From NCBI GenBank assembly GCA_963767925.1, contig CAVYGB010000002.1, forward strand, positions 1,056,001 through 1,120,000: DNA of 64,000 nt, given 5' to 3'. The translations under genes and the position numbers were made by a program. The notes under the pieces were generated by a model. It made no database searches and had not been told where the DNA came from. It saw only the letters and a program-made list of their open reading frames with translations. Source of the DNA: an uncultured delta proteobacterium. GTDB taxonomy: Bacteria; Myxococcota_A; Polyangia; Fen-1088. Below are positions 1 to 40,324 of the stretch, in pieces. Each line of letters starts with the position of its first letter. Within the stretch, counting starts at the first letter, position 1.

Positions 1-700
1 TACATGACCCTCACCTGGGCCAACCCCACCCGCTGGGCCGACTCCTCGGGCAAGGAGAACCGGGACCGGGTGCAGGCGCCCGACGGGCTCAGCGACTTCG
101 GCCGCGAGGTGGTGCGGGAGATGAACCGGGTCGGCATGATCGTCGACATCTCCCACGTCTCGGACAAGACGTTTCACGACGTGCTCGCCGTGAGCAAGCA
201 CCCGGTGATCGCCTCGCACTCCTCCTGCCGGGCCCTCGCCGACACGCCCCGCAACATGACCGATGACATGATCCGGGCGCTGGCCCGCAACGGCGGGGTC
301 ATCGGCATCAACTACGGCTCGAGCTTCCTCGACGCCGACTACCGCAAGCGCAACGAAGCCGCCCGCAAGCCCCCGCCCCCCGGCGCCCCCACCGACCCCG
401 AGGCCCTCGCCACCTGGCGCTACGCAGAAGCTGTTCCAGGCCGGCTCCGGAGTGGAGCCGCCGCCCCTGTCCCGCCTGATCGACCACATCGACCACGCCG
501 CCAAGGTCGCCGGCGTCGACCACGTCGGCCTCGGCTCCGACTTCGACGGCGTCCCCAGCCTCCCCAAGGGAATGGAAGACGTCTCCCGCCTCCCCCACAT
601 CACCGAAGCCCTCCTCGCCCGCGGCTACACCGAAAAAGACATCCGCAAGATCCTCGGCGCCAACTTCCTCCGCGTCCTCCGCACCGTCACCGGCAGATAG
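1..700 (+). CDS. Membrane dipeptidase (peptidase M19), 5'-truncated by the window edge, frameshift near 435-450
   Basis: Motifs GLSDFGREVVREMNRVGMIVDISH and ASHSSCRAL..TPRNMTD in ORF 4-, continuing in ORF 452-700 as LIDHIDH..GVDHVGLGSDFDG..KILGANFLRV. Confidence 0.85.
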
Positions 701-36431: not shown

Positions 36432-36593
36432 CGCTGGGGTTGATTTGGAACGGCCCGAGCGCGGCAGTCCTGAGCCGCTCCTTTTGTCGCCTCCTAAGAG
36501 CAAGCCGCAGAAACCTGTGAAAATCTGCGGTGGCCTTGGACGTGAGATGCGGAGATCGAGACGCGTGGTCGTGTGCGAGCCCGTGTTCGTGTT

Positions 36594-38618
36594 GTCGGGT
36601 AGCCCGAGGCAGTTACCCACCCCGGGCCCCCACCGGAACCGGACAAGGAGATTTCCACCATCCGGCTCTTCCGCCGAGACGTCTCACGTCAGCTTTGCCC
36701 AGAGCTGAACTTTCAGCCGTGGGCGCGGCAGCGGGAATGCTCGAAGAAGGTCCCCGAAGCGCTGCCAGTTCAGGCGCGTGCGGTTGCTCCGGCGTCGCAG
36801 CCACCGGTACCAGATTCTCTCCGCGGCCCTCACGAGCCGGGAAATGCAGGCCAGGTTGCCGTTGACGCCGAAGTAGTTGATATGTCCGCTGATGCGCCTG
36901 CAGAGCGAGGCGTGCTGCTCCTTGACCGGCTCGTGTCGGTGGCGCCGACAGAAGTCGTTGATGGCTTGCTTGGCCCTCTGGAGCCTCGCCTTTCGGGTTT
37001 TGAAGTTCTGCCCCCAGTGTCCCTTCCGGGTCTTCTGCCACAAGAGCGTGAAACCCAGAAAGTCGAAGCTTCCCGGTCCCTTGCCTCCATCGTGCCGTGA
37101 TGACGGCCTTTTGAAGGGCACGAGCCGTGTCTTCTCTGGATGCAGTCGCAGGCCGTTCTCCGCCATCCGCTGTCGCAGCATCGCCATCACCATCTCGGCC
37201 TCTTCGGGTCGCTCGAAGCCGATGACCAGGTCGTCCGCGTACCTGACGAGGCAGGTTTTGCCTTGCAGCCGCGGCCTGACCTGTCGGTCGAGCCACACGT
37301 CCAGGACGTGGTGCAGGTAGATGTTGCCCAGCATTGGCGAAAGCACCGACCCTTGTGCCGTACCCACGTCCGGCTCGGTGTAATCCTCGCCGTCGAGCAC
37401 TCCCACGTGGAGGCACTTGCCCACGAGTCGCATGAACGACTCGTCGTTCACCCGCAGCCGGAGCATCTCCATCAGCTTTTTGCGGTCGATGCTGTCGAAG
37501 AAGGACTCTATGTCAGCCTCCAGCACCACGTTCACTTCGCCTCGCATGCACGCCGCGTTCAGGGTCCGCAGCGCATCGTGCGCGCTTCTTCCGGGTCGGA
37601 AGCCATACGAGCAGTCCAGAAAGTCCTGTTCGTAGATAGCTCCCAGCACCATCGTCAGCGCGTTTTGCACGACTTTGTCCTCAATGGTCGAGATGCCGAT
37701 CGGACGCGTTTTCCCCGGGGCTTTCGGGATGTGCACCCGCCGAATCGGTTGGTGGCGATATCGCACCTCCTTCATCCGCGTGTGCAGCCCCCGGATGTTG
37801 TCATCCAGGTGCGCTCCGTACTGCTCCTTGGTCACCCCATCGACGCCCACCGCCGCATCCTTGCGGATGCGGCCGAACGCCTCCTTCATCAGCTCCTCGT
37901 CCATCAGGTATGCCAGCGCGAGCAACCGGGCTTCGGGTTCCCGTTTCGCTCTCTCCGCTACCTTCATCAGTTTCGGTGACAGGTTCGTCGACGTCTTGGC
38001 GCCGCTCATGTTCCCCCTCTGAAGTTCGTCTCGACACGGGCCCCCTTTGCTCGGCCGGGTCCGGGTGCCTTCCGTTCCCCGACGTCTTCGCTCTTATTGG
38101 GCCCTCCGACGCCTCGCCTTCTTCAGCCGCCGCTCCGGTCGTCCCTCGCTGCGCGGCCCACCTCGGTCGGGCGCTTCTTCTGTACCGGCCGTCGGTGCAC
38201 CCTCGACCCACGGCGCGTCGGAGATTCTTGGGCAGGCTCCCCGTTTGGCCTGAGTTGCCCGAGGAAGGGCGAGGCTCTCCCAGGTTGCTGGGTCGTCCTC
38301 TTGATACGTGCCGCGGTCCGAGACCCCGCCGAGCGCGCAGTCACCTGGCCCTTTATCGGTGACGGCGCTGCTGCCTTCAGAGAACACGAGCTCCTGGGCG
38401 CTCGGGAACCAACAGTTTCGAGGCTGTACTCACGCGGCCCGCGTCCTTGCGTGCCTACGCATCATCCGGTGACATCGCTGCCCCCGAAGCAAGGCTCGCT
38501 ACCGGCCTGCCGGGCTCGGCTCTTGCCGGGCGGGTTTCACACCCGCTGGACGACGATTCGGAATTTCATGAATCACCGCATGATTCAGTCCTTTCCGACC
38601 AGCCTTGCCTGGTCGCAC
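36594..38618 (-). mobile_element. Full-length group II intron (2,025 nt)
   Basis: 5' GTGCG at 38618, domain V GAGCCGGATGGTGGAAATCTCCTTGTCCGGTTC (36668-36636), domain VI hairpin ending CCCGAC at 36594, internal RT ORF. Confidence 0.95.
36684..38009 (-). CDS. ltrA: Group II intron reverse transcriptase/maturase, no endonuclease domain
   Basis: AVGVDG, RRVHIPK, RPIGI, SYGFRPGRS, EADIESFFD, GTAQG..SP, RYADD, HPEKT, FDFLGF, X domain GHINYF; 441 aa. Confidence 0.95.
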   Translation of the reverse strand: MSGAKTSTNLSPKLMKVAERAKREPEARLLALAYLMDEELMKEAFGRIRKDAAVGVDGVTKEQYGAHLDDNIRGLHTRMKEVRYRHQPIRRVHIPKAPGKTRPIGISTIEDKVVQNALTMVLGAIYEQDFLDCSYGFRPGRSAHDALRTLNAACMRGEVNVVLEADIESFFDSIDRKKLMEMLRLRVNDESFMRLVGKCLHVGVLDGEDYTEPDVGTAQGSVLSPMLGNIYLHHVLDVWLDRQVRPRLQGKTCLVRYADDLVIGFERPEEAEMVMAMLRQRMAENGLRLHPEKTRLVPFKRPSSRHDGGKGPGSFDFLGFTLLWQKTRKGHWGQNFKTRKARLQRAKQAINDFCRRHRHEPVKEQHASLCRRISGHINYFGVNGNLACISRLVRAAERIWYRWLRRRSNRTRLNWQRFGDLLRAFPLPRPRLKVQLWAKLT

Positions 38619-38822
38619 CGTGTTCGTGTTCGTGTGAGACGAGCGGCTAGCGGTTGGCGGTTCTCGTGCCAGAAATTTCGCTAGCCGAGGCCCGCGAGCC
38701 GAGACACGCGTACCACCCACGAACTCGAACACGAACACGCGCTCGACCACGCGCTCGACCACGACCACGGCACGACCACGCGCTCGACCACGCGCTCGAC
38801 CACGACCACGGCACGACCACGA
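38619..38822. repeat. Hexamer-based inverted tandem-repeat hairpin (left arm split by the intron, remainder at 36562-36593)
   Basis: (CGTGTT)n left arm against a GAACAC/GACCAC right arm, inner IR CGGCTAGCG..CGCTAGCCG, and a 41-bp unit duplicated at 38736-38817. Confidence 0.85.
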
Positions 38823-38837
38823 CAGCCGCGGCAGTGA

Positions 38838-39244
38838 TCAGGGCTGGTGGCGGTGCATGCCGGCGAGCCGGGTGAGCATCGCGCACAGGCGGTCGAGCAG
38901 AGACATCACCGCGTCGACCTCGGGATCGGGCGCAAGGCGAAGGATTGCGACGGCCTCCAGCGCGGCTGCAGCTTCGGACACTTCACCTCTGGCGGTGCGG
39001 AACCGTGAGATCCTATCGGCGCCCGTTCGGCTGGATGCCTCGGCGATGCCCAGGTATGCCGACAACAGCGGGGGGGGCGGGCGGCATGCCCCCGCCGTTA
39101 CAGCGCGCGCCGAAGCTGGTCCTGTAACGTCGCATACCCGCGTGGCATTCTCCGCGCAAGAGCGTCGCCCAAGCGTAGAGCATCGCGGGCCACGCAGAAA
39201 GCGTCGAGCCGATGATGGTCAAAGCTGCGGGGGCCCGGCGACAT
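38838..39244 (-). pseudogene. Four-helix-bundle protein gene interrupted by a 35-bp insertion
   Basis: FDHHRLDAF..LQDQLRRAL | LSAYLGIAE..RFRTARGEVSE..LCAMLTRL; removing 39066-39100 restores a 123-aa ORF. Confidence 0.85.
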
Positions 39245-39501
39245 AACCAAGTTATCGGCGGGGTTGGCGCTTGGTTGCGCCCGACCAGACCAGCGGCCGG
39301 GACATGCAGGGCTGCCGCCGACGGTGCGCGAGTACCAATCCAAGCGAAAATTTTCCGAGCCCGTCAGGCCGTGATCTCTACTGTCCATGACGGCACAATT
39401 CGAAGACATCCCCGAAGAGGTTTGGGAACGCACGCGCGTTTGGATTCCCAAGCGAGCACGCAGTCCCAAAGGCGGCCGACCACCGATCGGACGGACAGAA
39501 C

Positions 39502-39562: not shown

Positions 39563-40324
39563 TTACTGGGCGACGCGGATGATGCCGCAGCCCTGGAAGG
39601 TGTCGGTGCTGGTGCCCTGGTGGATGATGAGCGGACGGCCGTTGAGGTTCGAGGCCCCCGGGCCGCCGATGGTCCAGCTCACGTTGGCGGGCATGTTCGG
39701 GCGGATGTAGGTCAGCGTTCCCTTGCCGTCCTCGCCGCACATGATGCGGGCGTTGCCGCCGATGTTCTCGCCACGGGGCCAGTGGTTCGTGAAGTTCTCG
39801 CAGGTGGTGCCGTTGTGGATGTGGGTCAGGTTGGGACCGGGGCGGCAGCCCTCGACGGTGTAGGTCATCTCGACGCCGTTGGCGACCTGCTTGAAGGTCA
39901 CGGTTCCACGGATCGTGGCGCCCTGGAGGCCACCGACCATCGCCAGGGCGCTGGGGCCGGCGGCGGCGTTGGCGCCGTCGGAGCCGCCGCCGTCGCGGCG
40001 GACGGCGCCGTCAGCGGGGCGGACGTCGGAGGGGCGGCCGGCGTCGGCGGGGCGGGCGCTGTCGGGGCGGCGGCCGTCGGCGGGGCGGGCGGCGTCGGGG
40101 GCGCGGCCGGCCGAGCCGCCTGCGCCACCGGAGCCGGCGCTGCCGCCGGTGCCTGCGGAGCCGCCGGTGCCGGCGCTACCGCCGGTGCCTGCGGAGCCGC
40201 CGGTGCCGGCGCTGCCGCCGCGGCCACCGGTGCCGCCGCCGTTGTCCATCTCGGCGGGGCAGCCTGCGCTGAGCAGGGTGATGAGTCCTAATGAAACTAA
40301 GGCGCCTCGGGCTACGTGCTTCAT
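39563..40324 (-). CDS. Cu/Zn-SOD-fold lipoprotein with Gly-rich and PADAG linker repeats
   Basis: LSAGC lipobox, GTVTFKQ, THIH..C, NHW, GRPLIIH, GCGII. Confidence 0.75.
   Translation of the reverse strand: MKHVARGALVSLGLITLLSAGCPAEMDNGGGTGGRGGSAGTGGSAGTGGSAGTGGSAGTGGSAGSGGAGGSAGRAPDAARPADGRRPDSARPADAGRPSDVRPADGAVRRDGGGSDGANAAAGPSALAMVGGLQGATIRGTVTFKQVANGVEMTYTVEGCRPGPNLTHIHNGTTCENFTNHWPRGENIGGNARIMCGEDGKGTLTYIRPNMPANVSWTIGGPGASNLNGRPLIIHQGTSTDTFQGCGIIRVAQ

Follow-up and report, generated by a model that had tools for sequence, protein, structure and literature searches.

What occupies the hexamer-repeat hairpin in a genome of an uncultured delta proteobacterium (Myxococcota_A, Fen-1088), and what made that hairpin a target? 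The stretch that we analyzed (hereafter the window) comprises 64,000 nucleotides (nt) of contig CAVYGB010000002.1 from assembly GCA_963767925.1, and the occupant is a group II intron of 2025 nt on its minus strand (36594..38618). We find it very likely that an endonuclease-less (En-less) intron of the IIB type retrohomed here into an array of AACACG hexamers near the right end of an insertion sequence (IS) of the IS5 family. We demonstrate the anatomy of the intron, its three pairings with the flanking exons and the distribution of its copies; how the intron moves, and whether the hairpin contributes, we infer.

The intron runs from 5′ GUGCGAC to 3′ CUACCCGAC. In the minus-strand reading of 38950-36400, it starts at 38618 with GUGCGACC and ends at 36594 with CUACCCGAC. 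Both ends satisfy the group II consensus (5′ GUGYG and 3′ AY), with GUGCG at 38618 and ...GAC closing at 36594, and identical ends recur in other copies in the genome and in relatives. The domain I core (38314..38539, minus strand) matches Rfam family RF02005 (group-II-D1D4-6) over model positions 1-225 of 225 with 118.3 bits (cut-off 49); this family had no match in 14 control genomes. Domains V and VI (36594..36670, minus strand), with an AGC triad and a bulged A in CUA-CCC, match RF00029 with 42 bits (cut-off 40). A first-pass annotation, made from the letters alone, had described an intron at 38618-36594 together with its exon arrays, an inner hairpin stem and a CAGGAG-CUCUG stem-loop. All of these are present where it placed them, and the Rfam matches exceed their cut-offs. 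Two more group II introns of the same Rfam domain I family were detected in the genome, at C1:203839 and C4:143251 (185 and 174 bits). They belong to a different sequence family and lie at non-hexamer sites, GUGGUA↓ and CGGUUA↓ (the arrow marks the insertion point).

The open reading frame (ORF) of the intron is placed in domain IV, with ~610 nt of intron upstream of it, and encodes a reverse transcriptase (RT)/maturase of 441 amino acids (aa; 36684..38009, minus strand). This intron-encoded protein (IEP) carries the YADD motif (RYADDLVIGF) and matches Pfam RVT_1 and, over residues 39-407, TIGR04416 (group II intron RT/maturase; 337.7 bits, cut-off 300). Pfam and TIGR profiles revealed neither HNH nor any other family besides RVT_1 and TIGR04416 in the 441-aa protein. 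The protein stops 34 aa past the TIGR04416 match, and this short tail therefore leaves it with no DNA-binding or endonuclease (D/En) domain. By its predicted protein content, the intron belongs to an En-less lineage (the En-less classes are C, D, E, F and g1-g4). The myxobacterial introns M.xa.I1 and Sg.ce.I1 are listed under group g2 in PMC3552965. A tblastn comparison with plasmids gave rhizobial ltrA genes as the best matches to the IEP, with identities of at most 46.6%.

How does this intron recognize its site? We collected relatives from 60 related genomes and from public genomes searched with the RT protein. The public search returned 551 relative-encoding stretches, of which the best 80 (46-66% aa identity) were used, and the 5′ regions of the relatives were aligned by profile. 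Exon-binding site 1 (EBS1), CGUGUU, lies at 38388-38383 (intron nt 231-236, minus strand) in the stem-loop CAGGAG-CUCGUGUU-CUCUG (38378..38396, minus strand) and pairs with AACACG, the last six bases of the 5′ exon (-6..-1). Across 44 distinct intron/exon pairs, EBS1 and the exonic intron-binding site 1 (IBS1) pair at ≥5/6 positions in 38 and at 6/6 in 26. When exons were shuffled among introns 1000 times, the count at ≥5/6 averaged 12.5 and never exceeded 22. Because the loop covaries with the exon across relatives, the complementarity is no chance match of six letters, and the proposal that the CGUGUU loop is EBS1 thus stands. In L009, the closest relative (85.4% identity across the aligned intron), both sides are altered, with EBS1 CGUGCU and IBS1 AGCACG. 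The two other RF02005 introns of this genome also fit, with UACCAU/GUGGUA and UAACCG/CGGUUA.

A second and a third pairing extend the site. EBS2 (UGUUGGU, intron nt 205-211, 38408..38414, minus strand) is a variable stretch that directly follows a conserved CGAAA, ~25 nt ahead of the EBS1 hairpin, and pairs at 6/7 positions with exon positions -15..-9 (ACGAACA). It also covaries, with a 6/6 match to exon positions -16..-7 in 20 of 43 introns, compared with a mean of 8.2 and a maximum of 16 in 300 shuffles. The candidate EBS3 is a U at intron nt 298 (38321, minus strand), pairing with the A at +1 of the 3′ exon. In 50 of 62 relatives, the base in this column is the Watson-Crick complement of the first 3′-exon base; the next best column reaches 0.60. 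A delta-type pairing, between the base 5′ of EBS1 and position +1, fits L001 (the window copy), L009 and L010 and fails in L011; the nt 298 column was preferred. Exon recognition is therefore best described as IIB-type, with an EBS2-IBS2 pairing and a single-base EBS3-IBS3 pairing outside the EBS1 loop, as judged from covariation.

The site read by the intron is ACGAACA-CG-AACACG↓A, that is ACGAACACGAACACG↓A, all of it drawn from consecutive repeat units. The 5′ exon array CACACG-AACACG-AACACG (38619..38636, minus strand) contains IBS1 at 38624-38619 and IBS2 at 38633-38627. The 3′ exon array AACACG-AACACG (36582..36593, minus strand) opens with IBS3, the A at 36593, and is followed by GGCTCG. 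The hexamer array is indeed the target, as had been proposed from the EBS1 match, and EBS1, EBS2 and EBS3 all read repeat units; the site therefore needs ~2.5 or more consecutive AACACG units. The further claim that every register of the array is a valid IBS1 does not survive, since EBS2 and EBS3 also constrain the site. Position +1 is A in all four copies with a 3′ flank in the array (L001-L004), whereas most arrays carry C or G there and are empty. Empty modules mostly read CACACG-AACTCG-(AACACG)0-3-[C/G]GCTCG, with unit number differing between copies. Exact AACACGAACACG occurs 26 times in the genome; 22 occurrences are flagged within modules and one more is the 3′ exon of the window copy itself. 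Nearly all unoccupied occurrences have C or G next. A at +1 without an intron is confined to C2:2197946 and C10:1777943, both in modules, and C8:1566954, outside the modules. A usable site thus requires that an AACACG-like unit precede it and an A follow. We also compared the locus with three DNA runs and one metatranscriptome run. A soil-metagenome DNA contig of 196 nt joins window position 36587 to 38619, with the intron absent and one unit fewer.

Excision of the intron restores CACACG(AACACG)4 as part of the 3′ arm of a long, imperfectly paired hairpin. The left (5′) arm contains CGTGGT/CGTGTT-type hexamers (38693..38811, minus strand). The apical part of the hairpin (38644..38687, minus strand) has the inner stem CGGCTAGCG (38687-38679)/CGCTAGCCG (38652-38644) and a loop, and the distal piece of the right (3′) arm, cut off by the intron, is at 36534..36593 (minus strand). 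Tandem Repeats Finder reports CGTGTT units at 38619-38635 and period-6 and 41-nt repeats at 38717-38823. Once the intron is removed, the exons of the window fold at -152.3 kcal/mol as RNA (z -6.4 against 100 dinucleotide shuffles) and -93.0 kcal/mol as DNA (z -8.8), and a naturally intron-less copy on contig C8 gives z -9.6 (RNA) and -8.2 (DNA). We therefore confirm that the array forms one arm of an inverted-repeat hairpin. The insertion point is within a stem arm of this ~90-bp hairpin, neither in the loop nor, as with IIC introns, just past the hairpin; on this point the first-pass annotation needs correcting.

The hairpin had been taken for a member of a dispersed palindrome family. Its dispersal is real: a 289-nt module containing it is found at 29 loci in the genome, and this module aligns to its own reverse at 71-79% over ~177 nt, as expected of a palindrome. 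It is not a free-standing repeat, being a subterminal module at the right end of an IS. The motif CACAGGTTTCNGCGGCT, 3′ of the array, has 36 genomic occurrences, with inverted pairs ~1.56 kb apart, and the terminal inverted repeats ..AGCCGCTGAAACCTGTG / CACAGGTTTCAGCGGCT.. are also found 36 times. Each inverted pair encloses a DDE transposase on one strand and, on the other, a four-helix-bundle gene followed by the hexamer hairpin. The transposase occupies two overlapping frames, matching PF01609 (DDE_Tnp_1, 64.2 bits) and PF13340 (DUF4096), presumably a frameshifted orfA/orfB pair. TNA target duplications match in three of four full IS copies and in the IS that carries L002. These features identify the host as an IS5-family IS of ~1.6 kb, bounded by terminal inverted repeats and TNA duplications and encoding a DDE transposase. 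It also occurs as deletion derivatives of 294-649 bp that retain both inverted repeats. Among 40 related genomes, none contained the whole module, and short (AACACG)n-like arrays were the only matches, some of which resemble His-rich coding repeats. Outside any IS, related genomes do have extended arrays of (AACACG)n/(CACGAA)n, with 8-10 or more units (L121 in G014, L122 in G040, L123 in G009 and L125 in G046), and at least that of L123 can be read as a His-rich coding repeat (His-Glu, His-Gly). One frame of the IS hairpin arm likewise gives HELEHEHALEHAHEHA.

In the window, DNA homologous to IS positions 746-1628 spans 36494..39489 (minus strand), with the intron inside it. Its module shares only 70-87% identity with the main IS, and the remnant has neither a transposase nor a left inverted repeat. 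The right terminal inverted repeat (CACAGGTTTCTGCGGCTTGCTCTTAG) is at 36494..36519 (minus strand). The four-helix-bundle gene (TIGR02436; 38838..39230, minus strand) is frame-broken, its C-terminal part lying at 38838-39065 and its N-terminal part in an ORF at 39098-39469; the 75-aa C-terminal piece scores 25.9 bits against TIGR02436 (cut-off 24). Exactly at the frame break, the window has ~35 extra nt (39065-39100), GC-rich, partly palindromic and with a GCTGT repeat on both sides, that other IS copies do not have. A full IS copy of ~1.6 kb at C8:2215900-2217560 (L117) has the TIGR02436 passenger followed by the ~180-nt hexamer hairpin. Both here and in the window, the passenger gene loses its reading frame between ..DQLRRA and LSAYLGIAEAS.. 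and is either a pseudogene or frameshift-dependent. The intron shares its strand with the four-helix-bundle gene and begins ~220 nt past the stop codon of that gene; read-through transcription could therefore express it. Beyond the remnant, a neighboring gene (39563-40324, minus strand) encodes a lipoprotein-like product with (GGSAGT)n repeats and a C-terminal domain, and closes in a T-rich terminator directly before the IS remnant.

The genome contains six intron pieces (L001-L006). L001 is the full-length window copy, and L002 is also full length, 97.4% identical, with four 1-nt insertions. L003 runs from nt 551 on, L004 from nt 1527 on, L005 comprises the last 200 nt and L006 the first 58 nt. 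Intron sequence is present at five of the 29 module loci, as two full copies, two 5′-truncated copies and one fragment in the opposite arm. L001 and L002 have the 5′ exon CACACGAACACGAACACG in common, and the 3′ exon opens with AACACG in all of L001-L004. L006 lies in the other module arm, in opposite orientation, at GACACGAACUCG↓, where IBS1 pairs at 5/6 and IBS2 at 6/7 positions. Its intact partner sequence would run on as AACACGGGCUCG, the mirror image of the usual site.

Could this distribution reflect hitch-hiking alone, with a single entry into one IS copy followed by carriage through IS transposition or recombination? The 3′ exons of L002, L003 and L004 are identical up to the IS end, and some copies may therefore owe their spread to the IS rather than to homing. 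Around L002, the IS keeps its two inverted repeats together with a matching TTA duplication, and IS and intron could therefore have moved as one unit; IS copies are moreover 95-100% alike, which makes gene conversion plausible. Some IS-borne spread is accordingly possible. As the whole explanation, however, carriage without repeated homing is improbable. The intron of L003 is 99.93% identical to that of the window yet has a flank of the L002 type, the window copy sits in a diverged module subfamily, and L006 is in the other arm; these points argue for several independent entries rather than a single one. Furthermore, 24 of the 29 module loci have no intron sequence. Entry of the intron into the hexamer module more than once, including into the opposite-facing arm, is thus supported. 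Another explanation is that the copies are dead relics, inactive now, and that the match between exon and EBS is the fossil of a past insertion. Three of the six copies are 5′-truncated and one is a 58-nt stub, the ORF of L002 is frameshifted as assembled, and the metatranscriptome run gave no RNA evidence of splicing. On the other hand, the ORF of the window copy is complete and includes YADD, its domain V/VI and domain I motifs are intact, and its identity with three other copies is 99.2-99.9%, a sign of recent spread; we consider the relic explanation unlikely. Several observations nevertheless weigh against retrohoming into the array. Mobility is read from copies, of which only two are full length. 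Of the 1-nt insertions in L002, four in all, one falls within the ORF; they could stem from decay or from assembly error. The 3′ exon of L005 (AGCACCGGG) is not an array, the EBS2 pairing contains a G-G mismatch, and the two module sites C2:2197946 and C10:1777943 fit the site rule yet are unoccupied. Moreover, once the DNA is single-stranded, hairpin formation would tie up the target in base pairs and should make EBS pairing harder, not easier. GC skew around copies on C2 and C10 was noisy with no clear switch and gave no usable replication direction. No ligated-exon RNA was seen in the one metatranscriptome run, which yielded only partial contigs, 90-95% alike and lacking an exon joint, probably from the RTs of other organisms.

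Is it then the sequence or the structure of the site that is recognized? The insertion sites of relatives bear on this, with 30 distinct sites for which both flanks are available. A period-6 score of ≥15/18 was found only at L001, L002 and L012. The proposal that the lineage homes into hexamers therefore holds for the intron family of this genome, and does not extend to the closest relative, L009, which has no hexamer array. L012 (G055:C310) is an unrelated case, from a different intron sublineage in a genome of another family. Its 5′ exon and the 110 nt upstream hold a (GCGTCG)n/(GCCGAC)n hexamer hairpin, and the intron occupies the 3′ arm, directly after a stop codon; this makes a second, independent hexamer hairpin serving as a target. 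We folded each site with -230/+90 nt of flank, because ±80 nt missed the window hairpin, whose partner arm lies 70-190 nt upstream; after a first pass with 10 shuffles, only windows with z ≤ -2.5 were recomputed with 50. Very strong hairpins were present at five of the 30 sites: L001 (z -8.0), L002 (-8.8), L009 (-5.5), L071 (-16.4) and L079 (-5.5). L012 gave -3.8, and among 45 neighboring control windows none was very strong, the lowest z being -3.4. L071, from a Gemmatimonadaceae metagenome-assembled genome (MAG), lies within a near-perfect palindrome with a stem of ~100 bp. L079, from a Gemmatimonadota MAG, is in the 5′ arm of a near-perfect palindrome with a stem of ~30 bp. This excess is suggestive, not established. 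It would fit a clade that recognizes long hairpins or palindromes, as IIC introns do with terminators and attC sites, with the hexamer match secondary. We regard such structure-directed targeting as unlikely: the remaining 24 sites have no strong hairpin, a covarying 6-bp EBS1 together with EBS2 suffices to define the site, and insertions fall within stems, in either arm, with no fixed position relative to the stem of the kind seen in IIC introns. Note that the sample is small, that L001 and L002 are not independent, and that palindromes may simply be places that tolerate insertion. As a separate observation, at least eight of the 24 sites without a strong hairpin share another conserved sequence, ..(G)ATAGG(A)AAAACA↓AGC.G(G)TTTT....CCGAT.. 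The introns at this ATAGG.AAAACA↓AGC site (L043, L081, L066, L038, L041, L040, L046, L010, L111 and L091) come from MAGs labeled Myxococcota, Acidobacteriota, Spirochaetales and Rhodobacterales.

Retrohoming into the hexamer array, the explanation that we prefer, would proceed as follows. The spliced intron RNA would recognize DNA through EBS1, EBS2 and EBS3, reading successive repeat units, and a homing site would exist only where enough AACACG units stand in tandem. IS copies would arrive at such a homing-competent array through variation in unit number and sequence. By analogy with RmInt1 and other En-less introns, the RNA would reverse-splice into transiently single-stranded DNA at the replication fork, and the nascent strand would prime cDNA synthesis; reverse splicing into single-stranded fork DNA with nascent-strand priming is described for En-less introns in PMC4424553 and PMC8914252. 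The 5′-truncated copies could then result from incomplete cDNA synthesis or from later deletion. Since the module is a near-palindrome, its other arm would offer a near-cognate site on the opposite strand, one that has already been used once. The IS, in turn, may supply the intron with many harmless sites and a ride. The hairpin itself might stall forks, might offer the site on both strands, or might merely mark DNA that tolerates insertion.

The locus is a clean natural example of an En-less group II intron choosing a safe multicopy target. All three exon-binding sites were mapped by covariation, and occupied and empty sites can be compared within one genome, where the target is made and unmade by tandem-repeat variation. 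The case also documents an IS5-family element with a four-helix-bundle gene and a ~180-nt hairpin. Insertion in both arms, together with the hairpin excess, provides a lead on whether DNA structure or replication-fork behavior aids En-less integration. It is a tentative and rather doubtful idea that the clade truly prefers the arms of long DNA palindromes, including hexamer hairpins in two unrelated genomes (AACACG here and GCCGAC at L012). If it were true, this would be a fourth target choice of bacterial group II introns beside homing sites, terminators and attC sites. A palindrome shows the same IBS on both strands, so that one arm would be on the lagging-strand template whichever way the fork crosses, and a hairpin-stalled fork could provide both single-stranded DNA and a primer for an En-less intron. 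Variation in repeat units would then turn sites on and off.

Among known systems, the closest in its features is RmInt1 of Sinorhizobium meliloti, an En-less, IIB-like, class D intron that homes into ISRm2011-2. In both, the IEP has RT and maturase domains without D/En, the target is in a multicopy IS, genomic copies are fragmented, and the site is set by EBS1, EBS2 and EBS3 pairings (the pairing rules of RmInt1 are given in PMC4075523, and its homing site and spread are described in PMC1802570 and PMC8914252). Unlike in RmInt1, however, IBS1-IBS3 are supplied here by consecutive units of a hexamer array that varies, and the site comes and goes with this variation; it is in the stem of a ~90-bp hairpin whose mirror arm was hit too; and the IEP is at most 46.6% identical to those of rhizobial plasmid introns. 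The intron also resembles class C (IIC) introns, which are En-less and associated with DNA stem-loops (as described in PMC4424553). IIC introns are characterized in PMC4424553 and PMC7923331 by the lack of EBS2, an IBS1 of 3-4 bp and insertion just after a stem-loop or at a set place in it. We reject IIC membership given the covarying EBS2, the 6-bp EBS1 and a site within the stem. The ~610 nt upstream of the ORF in the window intron are likewise unlike IIC.

A further parallel is provided by IIB (CL1, class E) introns near attC sites in halophiles, which are non-IIC introns beside hairpin-forming DNA (PMC7923331). Those introns are reported downstream of attC in integron arrays, whereas here the hairpin belongs to an IS and the hexamers themselves are the IBS. 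The same source speculates on a role of secondary structure for the halophile introns and states that none had been reported for IIB introns as of 2021 (PMC7923331). Three target specificities are distinguished for bacterial introns in PMC4424553, namely homing sites, terminators and attC sites. In these terms the window intron is a homing-site intron, and RmInt1-style homing into an IS is an already known pattern. In the literature available as full text outside subscription journals, we found no bacterial group II intron that targets an array of tandem hexamers or a long palindromic stem. What is new here is modest: a target whose building blocks are tandem repeat units inside a long palindrome, the use of both of its arms, and a possible liking of related introns for strong hairpins.

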